Below are positions 11,516-51,158 of a DNA stretch of 64,000 bases, piece by piece. Under the pieces are notes generated by a model. That model saw only the letters and a list, made by a program, of their open reading frames with translations. It searched no databases and had not been told where the DNA came from. The stretch spans positions 32,001 to 96,000 of IMG/VR virus record IMGVR_UViG_3300026522_000024. The stretch is one strand, 5' to 3'. How positions within the stretch are numbered: position 1 is the stretch's first letter; every line of letters starts with the position of its first letter. Made by a program: the position numbers and the translations under genes. The DNA comes from a virus. Lineage: Duplodnaviria > Caudoviricetes.

Positions 11516-13327
11516 TTGGCTTTGAGACAAGTAGAACTAGATAAATTTTTATCAGTATCATTTCCTTGTAGATTAAATAAGCCTTTGTTGGTAAACATCA
11601 GAGGTTGTAATGGTTCTGGAAAATCCACAATACCTATTATGATGATGAATACTGACCCTTATGCCTTTGAGGTAGTTTGGTATAGAAATAACAAAAAACG
11701 TGTAATCTGTACAGTATTCCCATCATATGAATTCTTGGCTGTAGGTCATTATCACTCTAAGTGTGGAGGAATGGATTCAATAAAGGACACTCAGGAGGTC
11801 AAAGACTCAGTACAAGCATTGTGGAACTGTAAAATGAACATACTTATGGAAGGAATCATGGCGTCTACAGTATATAAGACTTACGCTGACTTGTTTTCTG
11901 AATTAAATAGTGATAACTCCAGAAAAGTATTGGTGTTTAATTTAGTACCTCCACTAAGCACATGCTTAGATAGGATACAGTCTAGGAATGGTGGTAAACC
12001 TATTAAGAGTGAATTGGTAGAGGGAAAATGGAAAACTGTATGTAGAAACCATGAAAAGTTTTCTGACGCAGGTTTTACTAGCATAAAGGCTGATAACTCT
12101 GAGATTTCTATAGGTGACACATTAAGTTGGTTCTTTGAAAAAATCAATTTTCGTACAGATACCTTTACAGATAAAATGATAAGTGCTTCTACTGCGGTAG
12201 AGTCAATTGAATATACAGATAAAAATGGAAAAATGAAAAGAATCAGGTCACTGCCAAAGTTTACTGGTACTCCAGAGCCAATTTATATACCTACTAAAGA
12301 GGATACAGAAGGGTATGAGTGGTCTAAATATTACAAAAAGCCCAATAAAAATATGGTTATAAATTGGGATAACATGAGGCTATATTGGTACTGGATAACT
12401 GAGAGAATGAGGATTTGGCACAGGAGAACAATTCTTAGAGAGCCATTCCCTTGGACTGAAGACAAGATTCTACAGGATAACAAATTCACTAATTGCTTCA
12501 GGGATTTGGATAGAGGTACACTTGTATACATCAGGGAGATTCTAAGGAAATTAGATGAACCTTGTGAAGATTTAACAAAGCGTATTAAGGAAGTCATACT
12601 AAACACACAAGTATATAGAATGTTTCTAAAGTATTCTACTTGGAAAAAGATAGGATTCTTGTATCTGGATACCTATGAGGAACAATGGGAGCAAGCCAAG
12701 GAAAAACTAAGAACTGCTAAGGCTAATGGTGAGGTTATATGGCACGCAGCTTATTTTGTTACAGACTTAAAAGCTGCCAATCCTAACCCTAAGACCAATC
12801 ATGACAAGCTGGAAAATGCTTTATGCTTATGTGAAATGTTTTATGAGTACTTAGACGACACCTATGAATATGTCATAAGTCATGATATGAAGGATTGTTT
12901 AGAGCATCTTGGACATTTTCCAGAGATAAAAGGATTCTCAGTATATGAATGGCTGTGTGATTGGGGGATGGCTTATAGATACGTGAAGAACTATTTTGTA
13001 AACTGGACAGACGACAGTTATGTAAATGTTGGTCCAGGCAATAGAATGGGGATGGATTTAATCTTTGAGGACAAAGGAGGTTTGGACTACCCAGAGTTGA
13101 ATTTCTATCTCAGAGCCTCATGGAAACACTACATGAAAAGGTATGGGTACTATGATGAGTTCATTTCTTTAATTCCGAAATGGATGAATGGTAGTGTAAC
13201 TGTTAGAACCATAGAGCATGATATATGTGAGACCCAGAAATACCTGAATATATACTATGGTATAGGCAGGACTAAAAGCAAGTTCAAGAATGAATCCAGA
13301 AATAACCTAGATTCACTAGTACTGTAG
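11516..13327 (+). CDS. 5-hydroxymethyluracil DNA kinase (P-loop kinase fused to aGPT-Pplase1/helical domain)
   Basis: NIRGCNGSGKST P-loop; ERMRIW..R....PWTEDKILQDNKFTNCFRDLDR signature; GPG and EHDICE motifs. Confidence 0.85.
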   Translation: MALRQVELDKFLSVSFPCRLNKPLLVNIRGCNGSGKSTIPIMMMNTDPYAFEVVWYRNNKKRVICTVFPSYEFLAVGHYHSKCGGMDSIKDTQEVKDSVQALWNCKMNILMEGIMASTVYKTYADLFSELNSDNSRKVLVFNLVPPLSTCLDRIQSRNGGKPIKSELVEGKWKTVCRNHEKFSDAGFTSIKADNSEISIGDTLSWFFEKINFRTDTFTDKMISASTAVESIEYTDKNGKMKRIRSLPKFTGTPEPIYIPTKEDTEGYEWSKYYKKPNKNMVINWDNMRLYWYWITERMRIWHRRTILREPFPWTEDKILQDNKFTNCFRDLDRGTLVYIREILRKLDEPCEDLTKRIKEVILNTQVYRMFLKYSTWKKIGFLYLDTYEEQWEQAKEKLRTAKANGEVIWHAAYFVTDLKAANPNPKTNHDKLENALCLCEMFYEYLDDTYEYVISHDMKDCLEHLGHFPEIKGFSVYEWLCDWGMAYRYVKNYFVNWTDDSYVNVGPGNRMGMDLIFEDKGGLDYPELNFYLRASWKHYMKRYGYYDEFISLIPKWMNGSVTVRTIEHDICETQKYLNIYYGIGRTKSKFKNESRNNLDSLVL

Positions 13328-13600: not shown

Positions 13601-13636
13601 ACAGATATTATTACTCATGTGAAGGGAGTGATAAAC

Positions 13637-14239
13637 ATGGTTGATAAGGACTTTTATGACTTGGTAAATAATGGAGTCAAGAGGTCAAGTGACAACTGGG
13701 GTACTGGAGTAATTCTTCAGCACCCTGTTACCAATAAAATCCTTCTAGCCAGAAGAACAGATGGAGATAAGCAGTATGCCTCACCTGGTGGTAAAGTAGA
13801 GTACCAGGAGAGTCCAAAAGAAGGAATACTGAGGGAGTGCAGAGAGGAAAGTAACGTAACCATAAAGGATATGTGTTGTTATGATTTCCGTACTCACTCT
13901 AGCCCTAATGGTAAGAATTGGGTTGACTTCCTGTTTTACTCTAATAACTTTGATGACTCTGACATACGGAATCAGCCATCAGAAATGGAAGAATTTTCTT
14001 GGTTCACAGTAGAGGATGCCTTGAATTTGGACTTGTTCCCACCAACCAAGGCAGCATTAAAGAGAGCAGTAGAGTTGGGACTCACAGCAGGTAGTTGTGA
14101 TGAACAGAATTACATTCCATTTGTAGACTGCCCATCTACTCCTTCTGCTGTACAGGATAGCTGCTGCTGTGCTTATTCTTTTGTAGAACCAGAGAAGATT
14201 TTTGATAAGGGTGATGCTCCTTATTTACCTTGGGACTAA
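13637..14239 (+). CDS. Nudix hydrolase
   Basis: Nudix box GGKVEYQESPKEGILRECREES. Confidence 0.9.
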   Translation: MVDKDFYDLVNNGVKRSSDNWGTGVILQHPVTNKILLARRTDGDKQYASPGGKVEYQESPKEGILRECREESNVTIKDMCCYDFRTHSSPNGKNWVDFLFYSNNFDDSDIRNQPSEMEEFSWFTVEDALNLDLFPPTKAALKRAVELGLTAGSCDEQNYIPFVDCPSTPSAVQDSCCCAYSFVEPEKIFDKGDAPYLPWD

Positions 14240-14329: not shown

Positions 14330-15616
14330 ATGTATTGTTTACAAGGAGAAAATCCTACTAAGATGTATTTACAGTCTATTAAGGACTTGATGGCTAATGG
14401 TGATGAAGTATCCCCCAGAGGTAAGTTGGTAAAGGAACTGCGTCCAGCTTGTATTGAGTTTCTTAATCCTTATAGCAGGGTAACATTCTTGGGGGGCAGA
14501 CGAATCAATCCATTCTTTCAGGTAGCAGAAAGCCTTTGGATTCTTAGTGGTAAGGCTGACGTGGAGTGGCTGACTAAGTTTAATGCCAATATGTCCATGT
14601 TCTCTGATGATGGAAAGTGGTTTAATGCTCCTTATGGAGAGCGAATCAGAACTTGGAACAAGAATGCTCTTCACAATGTAGTTATCAATCCTATTGACCA
14701 GTTGGCTGATGCATATAGAAAGCTGGTAAACGATAAGGATACACGTCAAGCAGTTATTGTGATTAGCAATCCTATGTTCGATAACTCTAAATATACGATT
14801 GATGAAAAAGGCAAGGATATTGCGTGTAATCTTGTGATTACTTTTAAGATTCGTCATGATGCTCTCAATATGACTGTATTTAATCGTAGTAACGATACTC
14901 ACTGGGGTGTATTTGGTGCTAATCTTTGTCAGTTTTCTACTATACAGGAAACACTGTTGAACTGGCTGCGTAAGTCTGGCAATCCAGAATTGTCTAGCCT
15001 GAAGATGGGTACTTATAACCAGATTACGGATTCACTTCATATTTACATGGATTCTTATGGCTCTAAGTGTACTGATGACGTAATGGATTACTATAAGGAA
15101 AATCCAGAGGAAGAACTGGAAGTTGATTTCCTTCTTGATTCTGATAAGGGTAATTTTGAGCCTAGAATGAGGTTGTCTGCTGAAGAGTTTGATGCCTTTA
15201 TCTCAGTATTCTGGAGCGTTATCAATCCTTATCTTATGGACGATGAAACACTGGTAGACGATGAGCGTTGTGAAGAAGTATTCGGAAAAGTAGGCTTAGT
15301 AGATGGCATGTACCGCAGAGGTGTAATAGATGACTACTGGCTTATGGTAATTCAGGCAATGCTGTCTTATAGGCTGGTTAAGATGGGCATGCTGTCTAAG
15401 GCACTCAACTACATGAGTGTAATGGCAGATTGCCAGTGGAAAGTTTCTATGATGTTTTTCCTCAAGACCTTTATTTATAAGCAAGAAGGTGATATGAAGG
15501 AAGAATGCTATAACAAATTTAATGAAATTGTGAACAACATGAAACTTAGCTACTCCAACGCATTTGGAGAAGATAGCAAGGAAGTAAAAATGTTAATGAA
15601 GTACTTGGCACTATAA
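14330..15616 (+). CDS. Thymidylate-synthase-superfamily dUMP hydroxymethylase
   Basis: YGERI, DTRQAVI, DIACN (catalytic Cys), RSNDTHWG...AN, SLHIY; next to the 5hmdU kinase. Confidence 0.85.
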   Translation: MYCLQGENPTKMYLQSIKDLMANGDEVSPRGKLVKELRPACIEFLNPYSRVTFLGGRRINPFFQVAESLWILSGKADVEWLTKFNANMSMFSDDGKWFNAPYGERIRTWNKNALHNVVINPIDQLADAYRKLVNDKDTRQAVIVISNPMFDNSKYTIDEKGKDIACNLVITFKIRHDALNMTVFNRSNDTHWGVFGANLCQFSTIQETLLNWLRKSGNPELSSLKMGTYNQITDSLHIYMDSYGSKCTDDVMDYYKENPEEELEVDFLLDSDKGNFEPRMRLSAEEFDAFISVFWSVINPYLMDDETLVDDERCEEVFGKVGLVDGMYRRGVIDDYWLMVIQAMLSYRLVKMGMLSKALNYMSVMADCQWKVSMMFFLKTFIYKQEGDMKEECYNKFNEIVNNMKLSYSNAFGEDSKEVKMLMKYLAL

Positions 15617-15628
15617 GGAGGACTTTAG

Positions 15629-16330
15629 ATGAATAATGATGTAACTCAGGTGATTTCTGATACCACCAATAAGAATGACCTTTTGATGATGCTAAATTAT
15701 CGGAGGTTGAAGAACATTAGACGTTGCAATAACCTGCCTACTATCAACACAGTAGACGTAGCTCAACATAGCTTTTATACTGCTCTTTTGGCAGTTACGT
15801 TGGCTTCAGACTATAATGTGTGGGCTACCAAGAACAATCTTCAGTATCACCCTTTGGACTTTGATAATCATGTACCTACCATTGATGGCGATAAGGCTAT
15901 GAAGAAGGCATTGTTCCATGATTTAGAAGAGTCATTTACTTCTGATATTCCTTGGAACGTAAAGCACCATGATGAGAAAGCACATGAGGCAATTACTGAA
16001 TGTATTCATTCTAAGCTGAACAAAGTGTATGATGGATGTAGTCCTGTTATTATGGAGCACAAGCACTTCATTGAGACCTGTAAGGACAAAACTATTGAAG
16101 GACAGCTGGTAGATTTAGTAGATTCTCTGGAGTGTGCTTGGTACTGCTATCAAGAAGTGAGCATGGGTAATAAATACCTTGGGAATATGTTAAATAAGTG
16201 CGTAAAGCTCATTGAGGCTATGCCTTTGTACGAAAAGTTGTATAAGGCAAGCCCCATATTCAAGAGCATGATAAAGCTGTTCGATAATTTGGCTAAGTCC
16301 AACTGTGATAAGACTATGAATATTGATTAG
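15629..16330 (+). CDS. HD-domain 5'-deoxynucleotidase (YfbR-like)
   Basis: VAQHSF, ALFHDLEESFTSDIP, VDSLE. Confidence 0.85.
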   Translation: MNNDVTQVISDTTNKNDLLMMLNYRRLKNIRRCNNLPTINTVDVAQHSFYTALLAVTLASDYNVWATKNNLQYHPLDFDNHVPTIDGDKAMKKALFHDLEESFTSDIPWNVKHHDEKAHEAITECIHSKLNKVYDGCSPVIMEHKHFIETCKDKTIEGQLVDLVDSLECAWYCYQEVSMGNKYLGNMLNKCVKLIEAMPLYEKLYKASPIFKSMIKLFDNLAKSNCDKTMNID

Positions 16331-17433: not shown

Positions 17434-19170
17434 GTGAACTGCGATAAATGCGAACTCTGTAAGGGAGTTTCTAACCCACTAATAATGGGAGAGGGCAGTG
17501 GAAAATCCAGGGTTATGTTTATACAGGACTGTCCAGGAGAATTAGACGATAAGCACGGACAACCATTTTATGGTAAGTCATGTAATGCCGTGAGAACTGC
17601 GATGGAAAATCGTGGGATAAGCGATGTCTATTTCACCTCCTTGGTAAAATGTTTAGCACCTAACGAAGAACCAAAACCTGCTCATATAGAGCAGTGCTTA
17701 GAGTACCTAGAATCAGAGATAGAGGTGGTTGACCCAGACATTATAATTCCTACTGGGAATAAATCACTGAAATACTGTATAGGTAGGGTTGGAATAACCA
17801 AGGTAAGAGGCAATGCTCAGGAAGTAGAAATTTGTGGTAGAACTAGAATTGTACTGCCTACAATGCATCCACGTTCAGTACTGAAAAAGCCAGCCTATAA
17901 AGAGTATATCCTAAAAGACATGGATACTCTAAAGGATTTGTACGACAATGGAATGACAGAGGTTTCAGGGGTAGACTACAAGTATTTGGAAACTGTTGAG
18001 GATTGCGTAAAAGAAATAGTACGTATGAAGAATGAGGCTAAAATACTTAGCTTTGACTTGGAGACAACAGGAAAGTCTGCTTATATGGATTACTCTAAGA
18101 TTGTTTGTATAAGTCTTACGGATAAGACTCATTATGGAGTAGTAATACCTCTGTATAAACATGATTCCCCAATGAGCACTCAGGAAACTGGATTCATAGT
18201 AAAGCTGTTGAGGTGGTTACTGGAAGATGAATCCATACCTAAAGTAGCACATAACGGTAAATTCGATATTGAGTGGCTAAGAGATTGGTTAGGAATTGAT
18301 GTAAAGAACTTCTCATTTGACACCCTGTTGGGTCACTACTTAGCTGTATCAGAAGAGCAAGGTACTCAAGGATTGAAGAGTCAGGCTTGGGAGTTTACTG
18401 ATATGGGTGGGTATGACAATGAATTGGATGAGTACAGGGGTAAGCTATCTGATGGAGAAGGAGTAAATTCCAGATACAACTATGATAGAATACCTTGGGA
18501 TATATTGAAGACATACGCTGCTGCTGATGTAGACTGCTGCTTGAGATTGTATGAAATATATAAGCCTATGATTGAAGAGAATGACAAGTGGAGTATTGTT
18601 ATGAATGATATAATGATGCCAGTAAGTTATGCTCTGAGAGATATAGAGTCCAATGGAATGAAGATGGATGTTGATATTTCCAAAAAGTATAAGAACAGCT
18701 ATGCTGAGGAAATAACCAGAATAACAGATAGGCTAGAAAGCTATCCAGAGGTATTGGACATTGAACGTGAAAAGCGTCAGCTGTTTCAGGAGAGAGAACT
18801 GATAAAGTCAATACCTAAGAAGGACAGAACAGATGAAGAGCAAAAGAAATTCACGGAGTACAAAAAGTATGAGAATTTCAAGTTTAACTGGAATAGTGTT
18901 AATCAGCTGCGTGAATTGCTGTATGATAAGCTAGGGCTGGTGACGTCAGTACTCACAAATAAAGGTGAATTAAGTACCAGTGAGGAAGCAATGAATGAGA
19001 TAAGAGAGCAGCATGAGATACCAGACCTGCTCTTAGAACTCAGGAAAATTAGCACTCTGAATAATATGTTCATACAAAAGCTGCCTGAAATGGTGGATTC
19101 TCAAGGGATAATACATCCTAGTTTTAATTTGTCTGGAACGGTTACAGGACGTTTGAGTAGCGAGAACCCT
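17434..19170 (+). CDS. polA: DNA polymerase family A, exon 1 (UDG-like + 3'-5' exonuclease + start of the pol domain)
   Basis: CDKCELC/UDG-4-like N-terminus; DLETTG, HNGKFD, YAAAD exo motifs; TVTGRLSSENP. Confidence 0.93.
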
Positions 19171-20120
19171 AGAATTGCGTGATGTTGGGGTTGTAAAATA
19201 GGGTGAACCCAAGTACTGGGGTGTGCACTACACGTTTAGTAACTACAGGAAATGGTAGCTAAGTAGTGTGCTAACAGGGAACTCTGAAATGAAAATCCTG
19301 TGCCAAGCTAGTGAAAGCCATAAAAGTAGCTAGAAGGTCAAACGACTAACAGGTGAGCAGGCAAGCAATACTCCTGACACGAGTGCCCTATAAGGTTGAG
19401 TATATATAGGTAGATGCTGGAATATAATTTTGGTAACTGTTGGATATTACCCTTTGAGGTGATATTTATGAGATACACAAGACTAGAGTTTATTCCAGGT
19501 TATGAAGGTTTGTATTCTATAACAGATACAGGAGAGGTATATAGCTGGAAATCTAATAGGTTTATTAAACACTACGTAAGACCTACTAGGGAAAACCATG
19601 ATAAGAAACATAATTATAGGTGGATAAAACTAAGTGGAACTTCTTATCCAGTTCATAGGTTAGTGGCTATGACTTATATACCTAATCCTGAAAACAAGCC
19701 TGAAGTGAATCACAAAAATTTTATAAGAGACGATAACAGGGTAGAAAATCTGGAATGGGTCACCAAAAAAGAGAATGAAGAACATAAAAGAATGAACAAT
19801 CCAGAGTTTTATGCTAAGCAATTAAGAGAAGCACAAAAGGTAGCTTGGAAAGTGTGTAGCAAAAAAGTTACTATAATAGAAAAGGATGGGACTACACATA
19901 ACTTTGAGATGCAAAAACAAGCTGTAGCTTGGCTAGGAATAACACTTAGAGTATTTGAGGCTTGGCTTAGCAATCCTGTTAGAATACCAAAAGGGTATAA
20001 AATTATCAAGGAAAATCATACTTATAAAAACCCGTACTCAACTGAATGATATAGTCTGACCTTACAAGAATAGAAATTGTAAGAATTTTAGGATAAAGAG
20101 CCTAAAAGATAACATAAGTG
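19171..20120 (+). mobile_element. Group I intron in the DNA polymerase gene
   Basis: P1 AACCCT/GGGGTT with U-G at the 5' splice site; AATCCTGTGCCAAGC, AACGACTA and GATATAGTCTGA core elements; terminal G; splicing restores SSENP-NAQQFPR in frame. Confidence 0.92.
19468..20049 (+). CDS. Intron-encoded NUMOD4-HNH homing endonuclease
   Basis: [16 protein letters not shown] (NUMOD4); VHRLVA...[21 protein letters not shown]. Confidence 0.93.
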
Positions 20121-21182
20121 AACGCACAACAATTCCCAAGAAAATCAGAGAATCCGTTATCTTTTCAATACCACAATGAACCTAAAGCACTATTTGGTTC
20201 TAGGTTTGGGAGTAATGGGTGTGTAATGAATGCTGACTATTCTGCTCTGGAAATGAGAATTGCTTGTATTATAAGTGGTGATGAAGCACTTACTAAAGCG
20301 TTGTTATCTGGTAAAGACCTTCATAAATCAACTGCTTCATTAGTATGGGGAGTACCAGTTGATGAAGTACCCAAGGATATGAGAACACGTGCAAAGTCTG
20401 TGAATTTTGGCATCATCTATGGAAAATCTGGCGTAACATTCGCTAAAGACCTTTATTATGACCCTTCAGGTGAAAATCCTAAGAAAACTGATGATTGGGA
20501 TAAAGCCAAGGAGGAAGGACTAAAGCTGGTAAATGACTACCTGAATACCTTTAGTGGACTGAAGCGTTGGTTGGAAAGAACCAAAAAATTTGCTTATAAG
20601 TATGGGTACGTTGAGACTATGTTTGGTAGACGCAGAAGGCTTCCAGATTTACATTCTAAAGTGCCTACACTGAAGAGCAATGCTGAGAGACAAGCAATCA
20701 ATGCTCCTATACAGGGTACAGGTTCAGATTTGACAATGCTTTCTATAATCAATATCAATCGTTGGCTAAAGGAAAACAACAAAAAGTCAATGATTATAGC
20801 TACAGTACACGATAGTATTGTATTTGATGTGTATATACCAGAACTTCCTGAGCTGTCTAAGAAGGTTAAGGAAATAATGGAGAGCGTTCATGAGCCTTAT
20901 ATTGATACTGTCGTACCCATTATTTCAGATTTAGAGTTGGGAGTTAACTATGGAGCCACTTTTGAAGTTACTTTGGATGAGTGTATGAATATACATAATT
21001 CTCAAGAGTTTAAGGAGTGGAACCATGAAAAGTGCTTATCTAAATACAGGAAGGAAATCAAGGAATTACATGGAAAGGGATGGGAATACAAAGAAGTGAT
21101 TGATTTCCTGTCTAAGCACAACAGACCCATCAAGGAATTGTTTAATGATATTGTGGAGGAATACTCTCAAGAATCAAGTTAG
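20121..21182 (+). CDS. polA: DNA polymerase family A, exon 2
   Basis: Motif A ADYSALEMR, motif B RAKSVNFGIIYG, motif C TVHDS. Confidence 0.93.
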   Translation, partial: NAQQFPRKSENPLSFQYHNEPKALFGSRFGSNGCVMNADYSALEMRIACIISGDEALTKALLSGKDLHKSTASLVWGVPVDEVPKDMRTRAKSVNFGIIYGKSGVTFAKDLYYDPSGENPKKTDDWDKAKEEGLKLVNDYLNTFSGLKRWLERTKKFAYKYGYVETMFGRRRRLPDLHSKVPTLKSNAERQAINAPIQGTGSDLTMLSIININRWLKENNKKSMIIATVHDSIVFDVYIPELPELSKKVKEIMESVHEPYIDTVVPIISDLELGVNYGATFEVTLDECMNIHNSQEFKEWNHEKCLSKYRKEIKELHGKGWEYKEVIDFLSKHNRPIKELFNDIVEEYSQESS

Positions 21183-25662: not shown

Positions 25663-25690
25663 GCTTTTGTTTAGTTATGAGGTGATTCAG

Positions 25691-27016
25691 ATGATAGTAG
25701 TAAAACGTGATGGAAACAAGGCAGAGTTTAATGGACAGAAGATTGTGGACGCAATTTCTAAGGCAGGATTTGTAGATGATGCAGTCAAGCGTCAAATTGC
25801 TGAAGAGATAGCAATGGAAGCAAGTGAATTCGGAGATAGCATTACTGTAGAGCAGATTCAGGATTCAGTAGAGAGGAAATTGATGGCTTCCAACTATAAG
25901 AGTGTAGCAAGAGAGTATATTCGCTACAGATATAAGAGAGAAATCATCAGGAAGAATAACCAGCTTCAGCGTAATATACTGGAGATTGTTTCCGCTAAGA
26001 ATGAGTACGTAAATGGTGAGAACTCTAACAAGAACCCACAGATACTTTCTACTCAGCGTGATTACATGGCTGGTGAAGTATCTAAGGATTTGACTATGAA
26101 GATGCTTCTTCCTGACGATATAGTAGAAGCACACAAGAAGGGCATTATTCATTTTCATGATTCAGATTACTTTGCTCAAACCATGCACAACTGCTGCTTG
26201 GTTAATCTGGAGGATATGCTTCAGAATGGTACGGTTATCAGCAAGACACTCATTGAGAAGCCACACTCATTCGCTACAGCCTGTAACGTAGCAACCCAGA
26301 TTATGGCTCAGGTAGCATCTAACCAGTATGGTGGTCAGAGTGTTACTTTGTCTCATTTAGCACCATTCGTAGACGTATCTAGGCAGAAGATTCGTGCTGA
26401 GGTCAAGGCAGAGTATGAGAGAATGGTTGCTGATGGTGATATTCCTGCTATGCCCAGTGAGGAAAGCATATTCAAGATTGCTGAAGGCAGACTGAAGACT
26501 GAGGTTAAGAGAGGTGTTCAGACCATACAGTATCAGGTTAATACTCTTATGACCACTAATGGGCAAACTCCATTTGTTACGGTATTCATGTATATCAATG
26601 AAGTGCCTGATGGAACTATTCGTGATGACTTGGCAATGATTATCGAGGAAGTATTGAAACAGCGTTATCAAGGCACTAAGAACGAAAAAGGTGTGTGGGT
26701 AACACCTGCCTTCCCTAAGCTGGTATATGTTACTACAGAAAACAACATCAAGGAAGGCACTAAATATTGGTATCTGACTGAGTTGGCTGCTAAGTGTACT
26801 GCTAGAAGGCTTGTACCTGACTATGTTTCTGAAAAGATGCTTATAAGATACAAGTATCCAGATGAAAATTTACAAACTATTAAATACCGTAGAGACCATT
26901 GGGGTGATGAGTATATGTATGGTAAAAACCCATTTAAGGAGTTGACTGACGATGAGTGTGAAATCCTTGAAAAGTATGCCAAAGAGTTACGTAAAGAACA
27001 GAATTTTATGGTATAG
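25691..27016 (+). CDS. nrdD: Anaerobic ribonucleotide reductase NrdD, N-terminal half (ATP-cone to PDYVSEK, plus non-homologous tail)
   Basis: VVKRDG ATP-cone, ENSNK, HFHDSD, MHNCCL, QYGGQ, GQTPFVT, FPKL, PDYVSEK. Confidence 0.9.
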   Translation: MIVVKRDGNKAEFNGQKIVDAISKAGFVDDAVKRQIAEEIAMEASEFGDSITVEQIQDSVERKLMASNYKSVAREYIRYRYKREIIRKNNQLQRNILEIVSAKNEYVNGENSNKNPQILSTQRDYMAGEVSKDLTMKMLLPDDIVEAHKKGIIHFHDSDYFAQTMHNCCLVNLEDMLQNGTVISKTLIEKPHSFATACNVATQIMAQVASNQYGGQSVTLSHLAPFVDVSRQKIRAEVKAEYERMVADGDIPAMPSEESIFKIAEGRLKTEVKRGVQTIQYQVNTLMTTNGQTPFVTVFMYINEVPDGTIRDDLAMIIEEVLKQRYQGTKNEKGVWVTPAFPKLVYVTTENNIKEGTKYWYLTELAAKCTARRLVPDYVSEKMLIRYKYPDENLQTIKYRRDHWGDEYMYGKNPFKELTDDECEILEKYAKELRKEQNFMV

Positions 27017-27194
27017 TCCGAGGTATCTGGAATTTTGTTTTTTAATAATGGCTCTGGTAATGGTACTCACCAAAAATAGCTTTTTACTGACACTTACTCT
27101 TTTAGTAGATACTGAATTTTGGTTTGACAATAAATGCATTAAAGATGTGTATAAGGTAACAAAAATAAGCTAATTGCAGACAGGAGGTCTAAAG

Positions 27195-27956
27195 ATGAAC
27201 AAGAAAATTATCAATAAACGTCATAGTTTGTGGTATAATAAGCGCCGTCCCTATAACCTTTTTGTTGACCTCTCAAATTACATTAAAGTTGCCCTTCGTT
27301 CTTACATCTTATGGATTGAAAAATATATTAAGGAAGATGAGTTACAAGAAGTATTGAAGAACTTTAATAAAGCTATGGGAAGTCAAGATAAAAATAAACA
27401 AGACTTGCTTGATGTTCTAAAAAAGATATACTTTTCTTTTGAAGAAGCATCTCTTAATTTTCCTAATTCCCCTTGGTACATTTGGTGGAAGAACGAGAAT
27501 TATAATGATTGCTTAATTCCATATAATGCAAAAGAAGCCGAAAAGAACTATAGGTATGATATTAATAGTGGGATTAGACTATATGCTAATCTTATAGAAT
27601 TTATTTCTAGTACATGGGTGAGCTATAGTTATGTTATAACTGATAAAGCACGTATTTGTCAACTAGAAAGAATTGACAAAAATCTAAATAGAGTATATGC
27701 TTTTGATGATGACCAAGTATGGTATATTTATGAAGGTCTCATTGCTTTTAAGAACGCAAAAAGATATAGCGTTCCTTGCGATACGTCAGAAGATGGTTGG
27801 GAGAAACATCTTGATGATATGATTTTCACATTTCACGAGATTACTCATTGCCATGAATTTTCTGATAAATATGATGCTAAAGAGTACGAAAAGAAATACA
27901 ATCGTGGAAAAGAGCTTTTTGGAAAGTGTTTTCTTGATTTGTGGGATTGTAAATAA
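27195..27956 (+). CDS. Hypothetical phage protein inserted between the nrdD halves
   Basis: RBS AGGAGG; C-terminal WEKHLDDMIF...GKELFGKCFLDLWD; no HNH, GIY-YIG or LAGLIDADG motif seen. Confidence 0.7.
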   Translation: MNKKIINKRHSLWYNKRRPYNLFVDLSNYIKVALRSYILWIEKYIKEDELQEVLKNFNKAMGSQDKNKQDLLDVLKKIYFSFEEASLNFPNSPWYIWWKNENYNDCLIPYNAKEAEKNYRYDINSGIRLYANLIEFISSTWVSYSYVITDKARICQLERIDKNLNRVYAFDDDQVWYIYEGLIAFKNAKRYSVPCDTSEDGWEKHLDDMIFTFHEITHCHEFSDKYDAKEYEKKYNRGKELFGKCFLDLWDCK

Positions 27957-27969
27957 TGAGGTGATTATC

Positions 27970-29073
27970 TTGAATACTTTGAAAAATGCTGCTCAAGAAA
28001 TAATGGAAAAACATGGAATATCAGAGAATCAAATTTGTCCCAAGGCTTATCCTCCTATGGGCTGTAGAAGTTTTTTGACTCCTGACTATGTACACTATAA
28101 GACATATGGAAGAATGAATCAGGGTGTTGTAACAATCAACCTTCCTGATGTAGCACTCACAGCAGTCCGTGAGGCTAAGTCTAAGAATACTGATGTATAT
28201 GATGAATTCTGGAGCATCTTTGAAGAAAGATTGGAATTGTGTCACAGAGGACTTCAGCAGCGTCATCAACGTCTTAAAGGTACTATTTCCGATGTGAGCC
28301 CAATTCACTGGCAATATGGTGCTTTGGCTAGATTGAAAAAGGGCGAAAAGATTGATAAGCTGCTGTATGGTGGGTATTCAACTATTTCTCTGGGATATGC
28401 TGGTCTTTATGAGTGCGTAAAAGCTATCACTGGTAAATCTCATACGGATGATTCAGCTAAACCATTTGCTATGGCTATTATGCGTAAGTTAAATGATAAG
28501 TGTGCTGAATGGAGAAAGGCTGAGAATATAGCATACAGTCTGTATGGTACTCCTATTGAGAGCACTACAGGGAAGTTTGCTAGGTGTTTACAGAAGAGGT
28601 TTGGTATCATTAAGGACATCACAGACCACGATTACATCACCAATAGCTACCATGTAAATGTTAGAGAAGAAATTGACCCATTTAAGAAGCTCAATTTTGA
28701 GGCTGAATTCCAGCAGCTCAGTCCAGGCGGTGCTATTAGCTACATTGAGACTGGTCACCTTGAAGATAACATTCCAGCAGTATTGGAAGTTATAAAGTAC
28801 ATGTATGACCACATTTTGTATGCTGAGTTGAATACTAAATCTGACTACTGCCATGAGTGTGGATATACTGGGGATATTGCTATTTATACTGATGAACATG
28901 GTAAGTTAGGTTGGAAGTGCCCCCAGTGTGGAAATACCAATCAGAACAAGATGAATGTAGCAAGACGTACATGCGGTTATATAGGAGCAAATTTCTGGTC
29001 TCAAGGAAGAACTGCAGAAATCAAGGATAGATTCGTTCACTTAGGAGGAAATGGCATAACAACTAAGGAGTGA
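27970..29073 (+). CDS. nrdD: NrdD C-terminal half (finger-loop Cys, Zn ribbon, glycyl-radical site)
   Basis: Own RBS GAGGTG + TTG; PPMGCRSFL, GRMNQGVVTINL, YGTPIES, TNSYH, CHECG...CPQCG, RRTCGYI. Confidence 0.9.
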   Translation: MNTLKNAAQEIMEKHGISENQICPKAYPPMGCRSFLTPDYVHYKTYGRMNQGVVTINLPDVALTAVREAKSKNTDVYDEFWSIFEERLELCHRGLQQRHQRLKGTISDVSPIHWQYGALARLKKGEKIDKLLYGGYSTISLGYAGLYECVKAITGKSHTDDSAKPFAMAIMRKLNDKCAEWRKAENIAYSLYGTPIESTTGKFARCLQKRFGIIKDITDHDYITNSYHVNVREEIDPFKKLNFEAEFQQLSPGGAISYIETGHLEDNIPAVLEVIKYMYDHILYAELNTKSDYCHECGYTGDIAIYTDEHGKLGWKCPQCGNTNQNKMNVARRTCGYIGANFWSQGRTAEIKDRFVHLGGNGITTKE

Positions 29074-45237: not shown

Positions 45238-45702
45238 ATGAATAAGATACCATTTAATCAACTCACTACGTGTCTGCTGCCAGATAGTATGATTACATTT
45301 ACAGAGTTTACCTTAGATAGACACGAGAAAAAGCGGATGACCCTGCAGATAAAAGATGCCATAGTACATGAAATAATACCGAGTAATCAGAAACTTAGCA
45401 GAGAAGAACTGGAACTATACTATGGAGAAGGATTGGAAGATATTGATTACCTTCAGCTATCCTCTATGAACTGCCTGAGAATTGTTTTGAGAGTAGGCAT
45501 AAACGAATTGGAGCAACCTGTATTTAAGGTTATTTCAATTAGTAGGGATTTTTATGATGAAGGGCTTCAGGAGTTAGAGATTATGGGTGCTGAGATTAAG
45601 ACTGAGCCAAATTACTTCCTTAGTATGGCTCAATTTGCCACGGAGCCAGTCACCGTAACCCAGCTTGAACAACCTATCAGAGTACCGATTATCACTCACT
45701 AA
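45238..45702 (+). CDS. Hypothetical protein
   Basis: RBS AAGGAG; C-terminal RVPII. Confidence 0.7.
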   Translation: MNKIPFNQLTTCLLPDSMITFTEFTLDRHEKKRMTLQIKDAIVHEIIPSNQKLSREELELYYGEGLEDIDYLQLSSMNCLRIVLRVGINELEQPVFKVISISRDFYDEGLQELEIMGAEIKTEPNYFLSMAQFATEPVTVTQLEQPIRVPIITH

Positions 45703-45716
45703 GAAGGGAGAAAAAC

Positions 45717-46760
45717 ATGGAAAAGCGAGTATACATCTTTCATCACACAGACCTAGACGGCATTGGAGTAAAAATTTTGGGTATTCTCTATGCTCAACAG
45801 CAGGGATTGCCTTATAAGAGCATTAGCTGTGGGTACAGCACAGTTAACGGTAACGTGATGAATATGATAAATGAAGCTAAAGACGTGGCTGAGGTTATCA
45901 TTGGGGACATATCAGTAGATGAAGAAACTGCTGCTAAGCTGAATAAGTGGATGCGTAAGACAGGAGTACCTGTTAGACTGAGAGACCATCATGAGACTGC
46001 TCATGCTCTTAACAGGTATGCTTGGGCAATCGTACACGAGTGCGATGAATACAAGGTTGATAGGTGTGGTACTTGGATGCTTTCTCAGGATGAGGACTTC
46101 CAAGAGATTACTGCTAGGAATAAGGTACTGATTGAGGCAATTGATGCTTGGGATACTTGGAAGTGGAAACGTGCAAATAATTTACATGCTAAGAATCTCA
46201 ATGCTCTGCTGTCTATTATAGGAGAGGCAGATTTCACGGAATACTGCATTAGCCTAGACGGAAAACTGAAAGAACCATCAGACCTGTTCGATACAGAGAA
46301 GTCTGCTATGATTAAGGCTTTTAGGCTGTTCATAAAGAAGCAGCTGGACAGCTATGACAAGTATATGTACACCATGAACTTGTGGGTACTGAATAGGAGT
46401 CATAGCAAGAAGCAGATAAAACTAAAGACTGGTGTAATTTTCTGTAATGCTAATCTGTCTGAGATTGGTGATGGCATGTTAGATAGGCATCCAGAGTTAG
46501 ACCTGCTCATGATGATTTCCTTCCCAGGCAGCATCAGCTGGAGAACACAAAAGCAGTTAGACATTCCTCTAGGGAAAATTGCTAAGATGGCTACTGGTAA
46601 TGGCGGAGGTCACCCCATGGCAGCAGGCAGTACTGTGAGTTTTAATCAGTTTAAGGACAGCCTAATCAGGTTTATGGATAAGAACTTTGCTGCTAAAATG
46701 GATTATTCTGACCTGTTAAGTCCATACGAAATCAAAAAACTGAAGGAATCTAAAGAGTAA
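45717..46760 (+). CDS. DHH/DHHA1 phosphoesterase
   Basis: HTDLDG, GDIS, DHH, GGGHPMAAG. Confidence 0.9.
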   Translation: MEKRVYIFHHTDLDGIGVKILGILYAQQQGLPYKSISCGYSTVNGNVMNMINEAKDVAEVIIGDISVDEETAAKLNKWMRKTGVPVRLRDHHETAHALNRYAWAIVHECDEYKVDRCGTWMLSQDEDFQEITARNKVLIEAIDAWDTWKWKRANNLHAKNLNALLSIIGEADFTEYCISLDGKLKEPSDLFDTEKSAMIKAFRLFIKKQLDSYDKYMYTMNLWVLNRSHSKKQIKLKTGVIFCNANLSEIGDGMLDRHPELDLLMMISFPGSISWRTQKQLDIPLGKIAKMATGNGGGHPMAAGSTVSFNQFKDSLIRFMDKNFAAKMDYSDLLSPYEIKKLKESKE

Positions 46761-46994
46761 TTTGTATGAATCCATGACAAAATACAATGAGGTGAGCTCA
46801 ATTGAAGCTGAAAAGCAATCAAAAGAACATGAGCTATACCAAAAACTGTTGTAAAACATGTAGGCATATCATTCTACGTAAGGGTAAGGTGTCTTTCTGC
46901 ATGGAGAGAGGCATCTATCTCAACCCAAAGAGTACTTGTGGGGAATACAATAACGTAAATGATGTGCCTACTGTTACATAAAGGAGAAAGAACC

Positions 46995-47531
46995 ATGATT
47001 ATAACAATTACTGGACCAAGCGGTAGTGGTAAAACAACACTAGTTAGGCAGTTGAAGATGAGAATGAACACTTCACCAGGATTCAGGATTGACGATATAG
47101 TCAGTACTACTACTAGACCTAAAAGAAGACAGGAAATTGATGGAATGGACTACTACTTTAGGGATGAAAAATACGTAGAAACCCATGATTTCATAGAGTT
47201 AGTGAAGTTTAATGGGTATTATTACGGCATAGAAAAGAAGGAAGTACTCAGTAAAATGTCTAAGAATGACAGAGTACTGGCTGTAGTAGACCAGCACGGC
47301 ATGAAGGCACTCAAAGCAGCAGGATTAAGAACAGTATCAAGCGTATATTTATCTGTACCTCCAGAGACAGCTTTAATAAGGCTTATACGTAGGGATGGAG
47401 CAGACAGTGCTGTGGCTAGATATATGTATGATAAGTCTCATGGGTTGTATAATTCAGAGGGATATGACCACATTGTTGCTAATAACCATATGGAGAGGGC
47501 ATTAGCAGAAATGGCACGTATAATACTATGA
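46995..47531 (+). CDS. Guanylate-kinase-like dNMP kinase
   Basis: GPSGSGKT, STTTRPKR..EIDGMDYYF, GYYYG. Confidence 0.88.
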   Translation: MIITITGPSGSGKTTLVRQLKMRMNTSPGFRIDDIVSTTTRPKRRQEIDGMDYYFRDEKYVETHDFIELVKFNGYYYGIEKKEVLSKMSKNDRVLAVVDQHGMKALKAAGLRTVSSVYLSVPPETALIRLIRRDGADSAVARYMYDKSHGLYNSEGYDHIVANNHMERALAEMARIIL

Positions 47532-47554
47532 TGAAAAATACTACAATAAACATG

Positions 47555-47588
47555 AATTCCTCTTTATTTATTGGGATAAGGAGGGATT
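47555..47588 (+). promoter_or_regulatory. RBS-sequestering hairpin upstream of the GATase-AADT genes
   Basis: AATTCCTCTTTATTT-ATTG-GGATAAGGAGGGATT. Confidence 0.75.
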
Positions 47589-47592
47589 AACT

Positions 47593-48252
47593 ATGTGTGG
47601 AATCATTGGATTTATTAGTGATAAAGTAACAGAAAATCAGATGCACTGCCTAAAAACTGTAATGATTGAGAGCCGTATTCGTGGTATGCATGCCTCTGGA
47701 GTTGTGTATTACATAAACAATAAAAAGAAAAGCATGGTGATTCCAGAGCCCATAGATGTATTAGTGAAAAAGCTAGACTGGACATCCATGATAGGTTGTA
47801 AAGTGTCACTGATAGCTCATGCTAGATATAGCACCAGCGACATTAAGTACAATCAACCTATTATAGACAAAGATACTGGCATTGCCATAGTACATAACGG
47901 AGTGGTGTCTCAGTCACCACCAGAGCAGTGGGAGCAGCAATTTGGGTATAAGACTCAGACTAAGAATGACAGTGAACTGTTGTTGAGGTGTATAATAGAT
48001 GGCAAAGACCCATTAAAGGTATTTCCTGAATCTAGCATTGCTGCCTTGGTGCTGAATAAAGACCATTCCATAAGAGTTATCCGAAATGGATTGAGACCTC
48101 TGTGGACTGGAGAGGTAGAAGGTGCTAGAGTGTACGCCAGTACATTCGACATTCTCAGTAGAGCGAATATAGAGCCTCACAAGGTAGATTGCTCAGGAGT
48201 AGAGAAGCAGGTGTATTCTAACCACAATATAAGGACTCCAATTTTGATTTGA
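47593..48252 (+). CDS. Class II (Ntn) glutamine amidotransferase
   Basis: MCGIIG N-terminal Cys, RGMHASG, HARYST, NQP, HNG, DSE, RPL. Confidence 0.9.
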   Translation: MCGIIGFISDKVTENQMHCLKTVMIESRIRGMHASGVVYYINNKKKSMVIPEPIDVLVKKLDWTSMIGCKVSLIAHARYSTSDIKYNQPIIDKDTGIAIVHNGVVSQSPPEQWEQQFGYKTQTKNDSELLLRCIIDGKDPLKVFPESSIAALVLNKDHSIRVIRNGLRPLWTGEVEGARVYASTFDILSRANIEPHKVDCSGVEKQVYSNHNIRTPILI

Positions 48253-48263
48253 GGTGAAAACAC

Positions 48264-49229
48264 ATGGAAACAACAAGGGACAGGGTTTCACTGTTCATTG
48301 ATTTTTGTAGAAATAGCATCTATGCTCACGATGTAGACCCAGCAATCAACTACATGAACTATATAATCAGACGAATGGAATTGAATGAAGAGCAGGTCAT
48401 ATGGTTGTGCTTTCTATATGGTATAACGTATCAGCTGCCTACTGCTTGGGTTATTTGGAACGAAATGCCAGACCTAGAACTGGTAAATAAGGAAAGACTA
48501 ACGAAGTGGTTAACACCTGAAGTGCTCCATAGACTTCCATTCCAACAGGACAAAATAAAGTGTAGACCTAAGATGGCTGAGACGATACTCTCATATCAGT
48601 CCATAGTGGGTAAGTCTCAGGCAGAATACTTTGATAATCTGTTAGACAGTGATGACCCTCATGAGAATTTCTGGAGAATGTGGTCACCATTGAAGTCTAT
48701 ATACTGCTTTGGTAGGTTTTCCACATGGAATTTTTGTCAGGCTTTGAAGCATGTAGCAGGATATAATGTAGAGCCTACCATACTTATGATTGGTGAACCA
48801 GATAGTGTTTCCTTTACTGATGGGTTGGCTTATGCTTTCAATCAGGATGACAAGCTAACTAAGAAGGAAACCATAGGCAAGAAGAAGGTAAAGGTGTACT
48901 ACAAGTGGAGTGACCAAGAGAAAGATGACATGGAGCGTTCAGCACTCATACTGAAGAAGTCACTGAACCTAGATAACTTCCAGTTGGAGACATTGGCGTG
49001 TGCTTTCAAGAAGATATGGAGAACAGCAGACAGCAGGTACGTAGGATACTATAATGATAGAGCAGCAGACGACATCAAGAAAACTGCTTCTATGGGATGG
49101 AACGGAATAGACTGGAAACTGCTCTGGGATGCTAGACAAGCTACAATTCCACAGGAGTATATTCATGATAACAAGGGAGTCAATACCATGAACTTCAAGC
49201 TGGAACCATATCAGAAGGTATACACATAA
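48264..49229 (+). CDS. Amino-acid:DNA transferase (aGPT-Pplase2/AADT family)
   Basis: DVDP...WLCFLYG, FGRFSTW, LETLACAFKK, RYVGYYNDR motifs. Confidence 0.8.
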   Translation: METTRDRVSLFIDFCRNSIYAHDVDPAINYMNYIIRRMELNEEQVIWLCFLYGITYQLPTAWVIWNEMPDLELVNKERLTKWLTPEVLHRLPFQQDKIKCRPKMAETILSYQSIVGKSQAEYFDNLLDSDDPHENFWRMWSPLKSIYCFGRFSTWNFCQALKHVAGYNVEPTILMIGEPDSVSFTDGLAYAFNQDDKLTKKETIGKKKVKVYYKWSDQEKDDMERSALILKKSLNLDNFQLETLACAFKKIWRTADSRYVGYYNDRAADDIKKTASMGWNGIDWKLLWDARQATIPQEYIHDNKGVNTMNFKLEPYQKVYT

Positions 49230-49241
49230 GAGGTGTTATAA

Positions 49242-50909
49242 ATGAGCATTGAGCGTGTGCCCATAATCACTAGAATTAACACATCTGAAATAGAGGAACA
49301 GATGTGTAATAAATTCGCTGACCTATGGGCATTAAAATACAAGACAATTAAGGGCAAGCCTACTACATTTATTAGTAGTAATCCATTCAAGCATAGACCG
49401 TGGCAGTCAGCTATACTTAGGGATACTCACCCAAATAAAGTCATAGAGAAGTCAAGGCAGCTTGGTATGTCTGAAGTAGGACTATCAGAGGTTTTACACT
49501 TCCTTACTACTAAGGAAAATGTAAAGGCTATGTACATATTTCCTAGGAATCAACAGATGGTAGACTTTTCCAAGTCCAGAATAAAGCCAGTGTTACAAAC
49601 TCCATACTTTTTGGACAAAGTAGATAAAACTATGGACAGTGTCACTACCAAAAAGATATTGGATAATTGGTTATTCATGCGTTCTGGCTGGGAAGGTGCT
49701 ACTGGTGAGGGTGTTGATACTGATTTCTTAGCTATAGATGAGTATGACCGCATGAAGGATGGAGTGGAATTATCCTTCCAAGAAGGATTATCAGCCAGCA
49801 AGTACGGATACATGCGTAGGTGGAGTACTCCTTCCATTCCAGGTAGAGGTGTAAACGGTGCTATAAGTAAGTCTGACCAGATGAAGTATATTTGGACTTG
49901 TGAACACTGTGGTACTAAACAATTCCTTACGTTTGATGATAATCTCATTCAGGTCAATCCTAATGGTGTAAACTCTGCTACTCAGGAGATAGCTGATGGC
50001 ACTTTCATTATAGGATGTAAGAAGTGTAAAAAACCTATCAATAGAATGGGAATAGGAGAATGGGTGCCAATGTACCCATCTATTCATGAGGTTAGAGGGT
50101 ATCATATCAGCCAGCTTGATGCTGCTTGGATAAGTGCTGATAACATCATGAGACGTAGATTCAGCTACTCATCGAAGCAGTTGTTCTACAATTACGTTAT
50201 AGGAGAGCCATTTGCTTCAGAAGGAATCAAGATAACAGAAGCTGATATCAAGGCATCCATCCGCTTGGGACGTGAGCAAGTGGCTAGGACTTCAGCATAT
50301 GCTGCCATAGTAGCAGGTATAGACTGGGGTGACGTCAGCTACATGTGTATCCTAGGAGTAAAGAGCAACGGCGTAGTAGACTTGCTCAATCTTCATAGCG
50401 TACATGATGACAGTAAAGTACCTCTGAAAGCAGTTGCATACTTCTGTGCCATTCTTAGGTCATACCAACCTAACATAGTGGTAGCAGATGCTGGGTACGG
50501 TGCTGATAAAAATAGCTATGGGTATACACAATTCCCTGCTGCTTGGTATTCCTGCTACTGGACTACAAATAAAGACGCACACAGCAAAACCAGATTCATT
50601 GACCAATGGAATGAATCTTCCAGAGAGGTAACTGTAGATAAGACCTTATCTATACAGAGAGTGCTTCACTCTATAAAGGGGCATCTTATAGGGCTGTTCC
50701 CGTGGTGTGAGAAGATTGCTATGTTTACTCAGCACCTCAAAAATACGGTTATCATGGATGAAGAAAGTGATGGACTAGTATATAGCAGGGCAACTAGAGT
50801 TGGTCCAGACCACTACTGCTGTGCTTTAGCATATGGACTTATAGGTGTAAACAAGCTGACTAATTACAATATTAATGTCAATAACTCCACATCTGTAGAG
50901 TTTATCTAA
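49242..50909 (+). CDS. Terminase large subunit
   Basis: KSRQLGMSE, IDEYD, STP, CEHC/CKKC Zn site, GYHISQL, GIDWG, PDHY. Confidence 0.92.
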   Translation: MSIERVPIITRINTSEIEEQMCNKFADLWALKYKTIKGKPTTFISSNPFKHRPWQSAILRDTHPNKVIEKSRQLGMSEVGLSEVLHFLTTKENVKAMYIFPRNQQMVDFSKSRIKPVLQTPYFLDKVDKTMDSVTTKKILDNWLFMRSGWEGATGEGVDTDFLAIDEYDRMKDGVELSFQEGLSASKYGYMRRWSTPSIPGRGVNGAISKSDQMKYIWTCEHCGTKQFLTFDDNLIQVNPNGVNSATQEIADGTFIIGCKKCKKPINRMGIGEWVPMYPSIHEVRGYHISQLDAAWISADNIMRRRFSYSSKQLFYNYVIGEPFASEGIKITEADIKASIRLGREQVARTSAYAAIVAGIDWGDVSYMCILGVKSNGVVDLLNLHSVHDDSKVPLKAVAYFCAILRSYQPNIVVADAGYGADKNSYGYTQFPAAWYSCYWTTNKDAHSKTRFIDQWNESSREVTVDKTLSIQRVLHSIKGHLIGLFPWCEKIAMFTQHLKNTVIMDEESDGLVYSRATRVGPDHYCCALAYGLIGVNKLTNYNINVNNSTSVEFI

Positions 50910-50924
50910 CGTAGGAGAGATAAA

Positions 50925-51158
50925 ATGCTGTATGGAGACCAGATTTATTTTTCTTTATTCACAATAGACTTGTTCATTCTCATTGTTTCCCTGTGGATAA
51001 TCAATAGGATTGAATCCAAAATATGGACTAACGACATACAGCTGCAGCACCTGCTAGAGTTAGTAGGAATTCTGAAGCTCATAATGTACAGTTCACTGAT
51101 AGTTACTATACTCATTATCCTTGTGAAATGTTTTCTAAAAATTTTTTACAAAATATGA
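50925..51158 (+). CDS. Small two-TM membrane protein
   Basis: Two hydrophobic segments; RBS AGGAG. Confidence 0.6.
   Translation: MLYGDQIYFSLFTIDLFILIVSLWIINRIESKIWTNDIQLQHLLELVGILKLIMYSSLIVTILIILVKCFLKIFYKI

Follow-up and report, generated by a model that had tools for sequence, protein, structure and literature searches.

The stretch of DNA analyzed here, called the window below, comprises 64,000 nt and corresponds to bases 32001-96000 of an IMG/VR virus (IMGVR_UViG_3300026522_000024) whose genome, 116,104 bp long with direct terminal repeats, is complete. It carries on its plus strand two adjacent genes that we propose to act together in the hypermodification of thymidine. The first (47593-48252) encodes a stand-alone class-II (Ntn, PurF-like) glutamine amidotransferase (GATase) of 219 aa, and the second (48264-49229) encodes a 321-aa amino-acid:DNA transferase (AADT) of the aGPT-Pplase2 family, which would be the acceptor ("synthase") partner of the GATase. 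A strong AAGGAGGG ribosome-binding site lies ahead of the GATase open reading frame (ORF), and the AADT start, preceded by GAGGTG, lies 11 nt past the GATase stop. The original prediction for this DNA had placed a stand-alone Ntn GATase ahead of an AADT with an 11-nt gap; its coordinates proved exact, and the Pfam matches to GATase_6, GATase_7 and ADDT are all over their cut-offs. By sequence, the genome is that of a Herelleviridae-like phage of the bovine gut or rumen. Its TerL is 48-51% identical to Herelleviridae TerLs such as those of Bacillus phages CP-51 and SP-10, bovine-gut metagenomes of several studies contain the GATase/AADT locus, and the endolysin genes of the genome (GH25, LysM, CHAP and M23) point to a Gram-positive host. 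None of 50,697 phage records matched the locus by megablast. In one bovine-gut metatranscriptome sample, contigs of two RNA libraries match window positions 45600-51000 at 100% identity and one of them (48213-48929) spans the GATase/AADT junction; however, because DNA carry-over is possible and every bin of this stretch was covered, we did not take these contigs as evidence of expression.

The GATase protein begins with Met-Cys-Gly-Ile-Ile-Gly, which puts the catalytic cysteine right behind the initiator methionine, and it matches Pfam GATase_6 (1.4e-10; 41.8 bits, cut-off 27) and GATase_7 (26.4 bits, cut-off 25). Residues C2, R30, H76, R78, T81, N102, G103 and D126 are invariant across 43 family members. 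The class-II glutamine site, consisting of Arg78, Asn102-Gly103 (oxyanion hole) and Asp126, aligns to the GATase domain of PurF, and the best alignment of the family profile was to the PurF glutaminase domain (1ao0, 2.4e-9). As judged from these alignments, the catalytic residues are intact. There is no covalent acceptor (synthase) domain C-terminal to the GATase in this phage. We found at least 290 stand-alone homologues, and the family forms 265 clusters at 50% identity (E<=1e-30). A close homologue is absent among the cultured phages of the 50,697-record collection; the two weak matches found there (H41 and H42) come from another system, in which a 423-aa GATase lies beside COOH-NH2 ligase, amidoligase and ATP-grasp genes, and were set aside. 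The C terminus of the GATase (48229-48252) reads RTPILI, an instance of the motif R-x-P-[IV]-[IL] that is kept in the closest relatives (66-93% identity). This motif occurs nine times in plus-strand ORFs, six of them at protein termini; the further terminal sites are N-termini at 34314, 49242, 10753 and 23023 and a C-terminus at 45238-45702. The terminal motif could be a docking peptide.

The AADT matches Pfam ADDT (PF18724, 4.6e-15; 56.4 bits, cut-off 26.2) and phrog_3271 (9e-47), and its nearest counterparts among cultured phages are those of Salmonella phage ViI-like phages (~27% identity over 90% of the length). When an AlphaFold2 (AF2) model of the protein (pLDDT 94.3, pTM 0.91) was compared with known structures using Foldseek, the top matches were 8z2n and 8z2m, both crystal structures of PaMx11 gp46/PUGT (probability 1.00, TM 0.56-0.62), with 12-13% identity across the structural alignment. 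The fold search was the sole method to link the two proteins: BLASTP between them was not significant, hhalign aligned only 41 N-terminal columns (probability 2.6%), and neither phmmer nor hmmsearch of the AADT against the PDB gave a match. The active site of gp46 comprises Asp24, Tyr51, Glu92, the metal-binding Glu243/Thr244 and the nucleophile Cys247 (PMC11472151). With the residue correspondence set by motif and partial hhalign, their counterparts are D25, Y56, D96, E242/T243 and C246, all of which are invariant, as is D23; for D25, E242, T243 and C246 this holds across 63 GATase-linked AADTs. For Trp146 (NE1) and Lys150, which hold the glycine in gp46, aligning the motif without gaps from the Phe-Gly that both proteins share gives F152 and the variable N156, and the other register gives W155 and Q159. 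The catalytic E-T-x-x-C motif is present, and at the level of the catalytic residues the AADT active site is intact.

The coupling of the two genes that had been suggested from this one locus held in a survey of their synteny. A GATase profile search of IMG/VR retrieved 267 stretches, from which 80 loci were kept, and in 70 of these 80 loci, all fetched by GATase similarity, a member of the AADT clade lies downstream on the same strand. In one locus (L050) the AADT is found 6.5 kb downstream of the GATase on the same contig. Eight other loci with a called GATase stop short of the expected AADT position, as does L034, which has the gene order of L039, and L056 contains only a truncated GATase at the locus end. 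The GATase family and the AADT clade are thus found together in 71/71 informative IMG/VR contigs, and among loci fetched by AADT similarity the GATase is present wherever upstream sequence exists. The adjacency of the two genes is far above chance. In relatives of 95-133 kb, where the gene order is DHH, GATase, AADT, TerL, SNF2, the GATase ORF overlaps that of the AADT by 13-28 nt, and an unrelated phage type of ~40 kb has an operon of PolA, HMUDK_hel, a thymidylate-synthase-like (TS-like) gene, GATase and an AADT::P-loop kinase fusion, with overlaps of 4-14 nt. At least four unrelated backbones carry the pair with its genes adjacent or overlapping, and the GATase family spans rumen, aquatic and Campylobacter-associated elements. 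By its sequence record, the pair is a mobile module.

Single proteins in which a GATase forms the N-terminal part and an AADT the C-terminal part occur in two deeply diverged lineages. Fusion P0244 has 560 aa, and P0385 is 75% identical to it; the 90%-identity cluster of P0244 has 11 members, several from Campylobacter jejuni assemblies. Both proteins are encoded between ribonucleotide reductase genes and a group consisting of two HMUD2 kinases and an intein-bearing TS-like gene. Fusion P0315 (588 aa) is only 36% identical to P0244; an HMUDK kinase gene and a TS-like gene come after it. All three fusions retain the N-terminal Met-Cys as well as D-x-D-P and E-T-x-x-C. The AF2 model of P0244 (pLDDT 80.6, pTM 0.57) has a disordered linker at residues 199-222 and no confident domain packing, and its input alignment misplaced the first ~58 residues of the AADT and the last ~28 of the GATase. 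One fusion-bearing element lies in a 216,940-bp contig of a C. jejuni assembly (GCA_003961795.1; L099:9001-14280). Besides PolA, dUTPase_2, NrdA/B and ClpP, this phage-like element carries two HMUD2 kinases, a TS-like gene with an intein and an actin-like protein (ALP_N), and is a candidate for a prophage or phage-plasmid that hypermodifies 5-hydroxymethyl-dU (hmdU) in a cultivable host.

An abundant sister phage (L014/L015), which represents a single lineage, has no GATase. Its AADT orthologue (L014:8001-8975; 44% identical) has its catalytic cysteine replaced by serine (ETLAS) and is also without the RMExN motif, which is invariant elsewhere. The GATase slot (L014:7048-8001) is occupied by a 317-aa gene that we considered as an alternative nitrogen-donor partner; this was rejected, as the product is a divergent second AADT (HMM 1.3e-14) retaining E-S-x-x-C. 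The serine variant may serve the new paralogue as a pseudo-enzyme partner. Four independent lines of comparative genomics, namely the obligate co-occurrence of the two families, the overlapping genes in unrelated backbones, the fusions and the decay of the AADT where the GATase has been lost, thus give strong support to a functional coupling of the two enzymes.

The GATase family is found in two types of cassette, and the AADT is the only partner common to all GATase contexts. Minimal cassettes consist only of an hmdU source, a kinase, the GATase and the AADT. The phage studied here and its relatives have this type, as do the 40-kb phages and the two lineages with fusions; besides this genome, the minimal cassettes are those of L005, L007, L009, L012, L016, L099 and L112, none of which has an amidoligase-like gene. 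In the extended cassette, found in most aquatic IMG/VR loci, Tet_JBP and the GATase are followed by a ~295-aa protein, in some loci by a GNAT, and then by the AADT and a P-loop kinase. The ~295-aa protein (e.g. L024:6677-7564) is Pfam-blind at E<=1e-3 and homologous to the Amidoligase_2 domain of a longer protein, P0291. A GNAT accompanies the GATase/AADT pair in 21/80 loci. Because PaMx11 gp48 acetylates 5-aminomethyl-dU (5-NmdU) (PMC8989533), these GNATs fit a primary-amine product, and a primary amine is consistent with what we propose for the pair.

We searched for other tailoring enzymes by a Pfam scan that covered nearly all ORFs of the genome and by whole-genome searches for specific families. 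In the whole 116,104 bp there was no GNAT (PF00583; gp48-type), no DAO-type FAD enzyme (PF01266; gp47-type), no Amidoligase_2 and no member of three pyridoxal-phosphate (PLP) families. Tet_JBP also had no match in the genome, but the control of the same search matched nowhere either. The sole radical-SAM signal is the NrdG activase beside NrdD. The claim that the window holds no PLP decarboxylase and no tailoring radical-SAM gene therefore stands, and now extends to the entire genome. A purpose-built hidden Markov model (HMM) of the Pfam-blind amidoligase-like family had no match in six frames of the genome and of all minimal cassettes, and blastp of gp47 against ~95 loci found no gp47-like lyase. 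Since the other tailoring families were not found in this genome, the GATase is its only recognizable tailoring enzyme besides the AADT.

Genes for the preceding steps lie elsewhere on the plus strand of the window. The ORF at 11516-13327 contains both domains of a 5-hmdU DNA kinase (5-HMUDK; PF18748 HMUDK_HMUD1, 1.5e-29; PF18723 HMUDK_hel, 1.9e-42), the function originally assigned to the kinase at 11516, and would make the 5-phosphomethyl-dU substrate. A 428-aa TS-like enzyme is encoded at 14330-15616 (PF00303, 8.1e-12; TIGR03283, 7.4e-17, well under cut-off), and its homologues lie within the compact cassettes of L012, L016, L099 and L112. From this context we infer that it is a dUMP hydroxymethylase supplying hmdU rather than a methylase. 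Between the kinase and TS-like genes is a NUDIX hydrolase gene (13619-14239; PF00293, 2.8e-17), a position that suggests clearing of the dNTP pool for replacement of T by hmdU, and an HD-domain YfbR-like 5'-deoxynucleotidase (15629-16330; PF12917, 1.1e-18) may likewise clear dTMP and other dNMPs. A dUTPase is also encoded in the genome. Judged by their domains, the kinase, NUDIX hydrolase, TS-like enzyme, HD nucleotidase and dUTPase are the expected toolkit of an hmdU phage with post-replicative DNA modification.

By analogy with known amidotransferases and AADTs, and from genomic context, we consider it somewhat more likely than not that the two proteins are the subunits of a glutamine-dependent amidotransferase that acts on 5-phosphomethyl-dU in duplex DNA and makes 5-NmdU; the nitrogen donor, its channelling and the product are what we infer on the same grounds. 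In this scheme, the TS-like hydroxymethylase and the pool-clearing enzymes would replace T by 5-hmdU, which 5-HMUDK would phosphorylate in DNA to give 5-phosphomethyl-dU. Following the mechanism proposed for gp46 of PaMx11, Cys246 of the AADT would then attack C6, with loss of the phosphate and formation of an exocyclic methylene. Finally, Cys1 of the GATase would hydrolyze glutamine, and the ammonia would move to the AADT pocket and add to the methylene, yielding 5-NmdU. Modification in this phage probably ends at 5-NmdU, as the genome has no enzyme of the acetyltransferase, amidoligase, lyase or decarboxylase type. The route of PaMx11, in which glycine is added and then oxidatively cleaved, is not available, because none of the ~95 loci has a gp47-type lyase.

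Several observations weigh against this proposal. Characterized AADTs all use an amino acid or a polyamine, not ammonia (PMC8989533, PMC13458397). The ~295-aa amidoligase-like gene directly follows the GATase in 58/80 IMG/VR loci, and P0291 (L113:418-1989), which is followed by a GNAT, joins a GATase of the same family with an Amidoligase_2 domain in one protein; the ammonia may therefore go to the amidoligase where the cassette is extended. In addition, about half of the ORFs in this genome have no family match, and a tailoring enzyme could hide there.

The substrates of the characterized AADTs (PMC8989533) and the amidoligase-like partners of the GATase, whether adjacent or fused, also speak for an alternative: as in M6, ViI and PaMx11, the AADT would first add a common amino acid such as Gly, Ser or Glu, and ammonia from the GATase would then amidate the carboxylate of this adduct. 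We regard this as unlikely for the present phage, as amidation of a carboxylate requires ATP-dependent activation and no amidoligase-like gene was found in six frames of the genome or of the minimal cassettes, and the GATase::AADT fusions mark the AADT as the direct partner. The original prediction had allowed both that the GATase supplies ammonia and that it amidates an amino-acid adduct. The functional link behind both options has strong backing from comparative genomics; of the two, supply of ammonia leading to 5-NmdU fits the genome better, because no ATP-dependent carboxylate-activating enzyme is present.

Alternatively, nitrogen could be delivered covalently. Stand-alone class-II GATase-like enzymes can act as amidohydrolases, as EgtC does, and the AADT might attach glutamine itself to the methylene, so that the DNA-bound adduct would be the substrate of the Ntn enzyme, working as a gamma-glutamyl amidohydrolase like EgtC. 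With the glutamine joined by its amide nitrogen, this step would release 5-NmdU; with the glutamine joined by its alpha nitrogen, it would leave alpha-glutamyl-thymine. The invariance of R78 and D126, which bind the glutamyl alpha-amino and alpha-carboxylate groups, agrees with such a route, and sequential steps are equally compatible with fusion and adjacency of the genes. However, an amide nitrogen is a poor nucleophile, the buried Ntn active site would need access to a base in duplex DNA, and this GATase has no homologue in SP-10, a Bacillus phage that makes alpha-glutamylthymine; we therefore consider the covalent route distinctly improbable. That the GATase is a bystander, either a PurF/GlmS remnant or a host-metabolism gene without a part in DNA modification, could be suspected from the automatic annotation of relatives as PRPP amidotransferase or GlmS-like, but is strongly disfavored and very hard to reconcile with the missing acceptor domain, the 71/71 co-occurrence with the AADT clade, the mobility of the pair and the fusions.

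Two further genes precede the GATase. A guanylate-kinase-like P-loop kinase is encoded directly upstream on the plus strand (46959-47531; PF00625, 3.6e-23; TIGR03263, 107 bits, under the cut-off of 160) and is possibly an hmdUMP/dNMP kinase; it is missing at the corresponding position in relatives L005, L007 and L009 and is not a conserved member of the GATase/AADT pair. The plus-strand gene at 45717-46760 encodes a DHH/DHHA1 RecJ-like phosphoesterase (PF02272, 2.7e-5, with weak RecJ matches). We considered it as a member of the module, but it is conserved only in the myovirus clade, lying upstream of the GATase in L005, L007 and L009 and present in L014, and not in the cassettes of L012, L016, L099 and L112, and is probably not part of it.

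Other features of the genome concern replication and nucleotide metabolism. The family-A DNA polymerase, which has a UDG-superfamily domain in its N-terminal part, is divided into two ORFs by an HNH/NUMOD4 endonuclease gene (window 17434-21182), and NrdD is likewise divided into two ORFs by an unrelated 260-aa ORF (window 25667-29073). A 182-aa ORF at 4178-4726 matches the formate/nitrite transporter family (PF01226, 49 bits, over cut-off). Formate is the reductant for class III ribonucleotide reductase, and since the phage encodes NrdD and NrdG, it may import its own reductant. Among the structural genes in the flanking parts of the record (1-32000 and 96001-116104) there is one for a reverse transcriptase (7.1e-18 to RVT_1), consistent with a diversity-generating retroelement.

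An association of GATase and AADT is neither unusual nor unnoticed. The family is widespread, as its 265 clusters indicate, and the association is already mentioned in print. Lee 2021 (PMC8989533) noted the co-occurrence of GATase and AADT without assigning a function, and a PNAS 2026 study (PMC13229309) listed GATases among the T-hypermodification machinery near ParB-dependent T-dioxygenases without assigning a reaction. In the literature on 5-NmdU and AADTs we found no description of a glutamine-dependent route. New findings of this analysis are that GATase and AADT are obligately linked in both directions, that a Herelleviridae-like phage of the rumen has a minimal cassette of the hydroxymethylase type, that fusions occur in two lineages and that the AADT has decayed in the sister phage without a GATase; the GATase::amidoligase fusion is likewise new and counts as a caveat. 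As for the expectation that the base would differ from characterized ones, 5-NmdU is already known as an intermediate in PaMx11, and the novelty would lie in the proposed route to it and in its probable status as an end product.

Thymidine hypermodifications shield phage DNA from restriction and other nucleases and are a source of enzymes for DNA labelling and sequencing chemistry. In all characterized routes, an amino acid or polyamine is first attached and trimmed afterwards. We put at about even the chance that the pair and its single-chain fusions are the first amidotransferase to use a nucleobase in duplex DNA as ammonia acceptor, in one glutamine-dependent step, and that minimal-cassette phages carry 5-NmdU as a positively charged final base. 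If so, a primary amine handle would be placed on DNA in one step by three proteins (kinase, GATase and AADT), or by two where the latter are fused, the classical amidotransferases would gain a DNA-directed member, and 5-NmdU would be a base not yet reported from native virion DNA. Genes of the GATase family are listed in the literature as "function not yet known", and, as the family is large (265 clusters), one biochemical test would assign a function to hundreds of genes; the natural fusions would be a convenient one-polypeptide target for such an assay.

The proposed system can be compared with several known ones. In ViI-type phages (gp247 serine:DNA transferase), the AADT is paired with a PLP decarboxylase and not with a GATase (PMC8989533). 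Like the hmdU phages of the SP-10, CP-51 and SPO1 group of Herelleviridae, this phage would replace T by hmdU and then modify the DNA post-replicatively, and it shares an SP10-type terminator protein; in SP-10, however, alpha-glutamylthymine is made by a different enzyme set. The metavirome TET/JBP (5mYOX) cassettes, which contain a GATase, a P-loop kinase and an AADT (Lee 2021, PMC8989533; PNAS 2026, PMC13229309), draw on the GATase family seen here, at 38-43% identity, and on its AADT clade, at 215-270 bits to the clade HMM. Those cassettes start from Tet_JBP oxidation of thymine in DNA, whereas this phage uses a dUMP hydroxymethylase-like enzyme, and they usually place an amidoligase-like gene, sometimes a GNAT, between GATase and AADT, which are directly adjacent here with neither gene present. 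With PurF, GlmS and AsnB the GATase shares the N-terminal catalytic cysteine, the Arg/Asn-Gly/Asp glutamine site and a PurF-like NGLRPL motif, and the order of domains in those enzymes (GATase, then acceptor) is that of the natural fusions. Unlike in those enzymes, the acceptor would be an HhH-glycosylase-like DNA-base transferase rather than a small-molecule synthase, the two are separate polypeptides here, and an ammonia tunnel between them is putative. Finally, the PaMx11 pathway to 5-NmdU and 5-AcNmdU, with gp46 PUGT/AADT, gp47 FAD glycinylthymine lyase, gp48 GNAT and gp49 kinase (PMC8989533, PMC11472151), has in common with the pathway proposed here the 5-phosphomethyl-dU intermediate, the AADT fold, the Asp / Glu-Thr-x-x-Cys set and the predicted amine product 5-NmdU. 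This phage lacks homologues of the gp47 lyase and the gp48 GNAT; where PaMx11 adds glycine and then cleaves it oxidatively, nitrogen would here come from glutamine in one step, and the pathway would stop at 5-NmdU, which is an intermediate in PaMx11.

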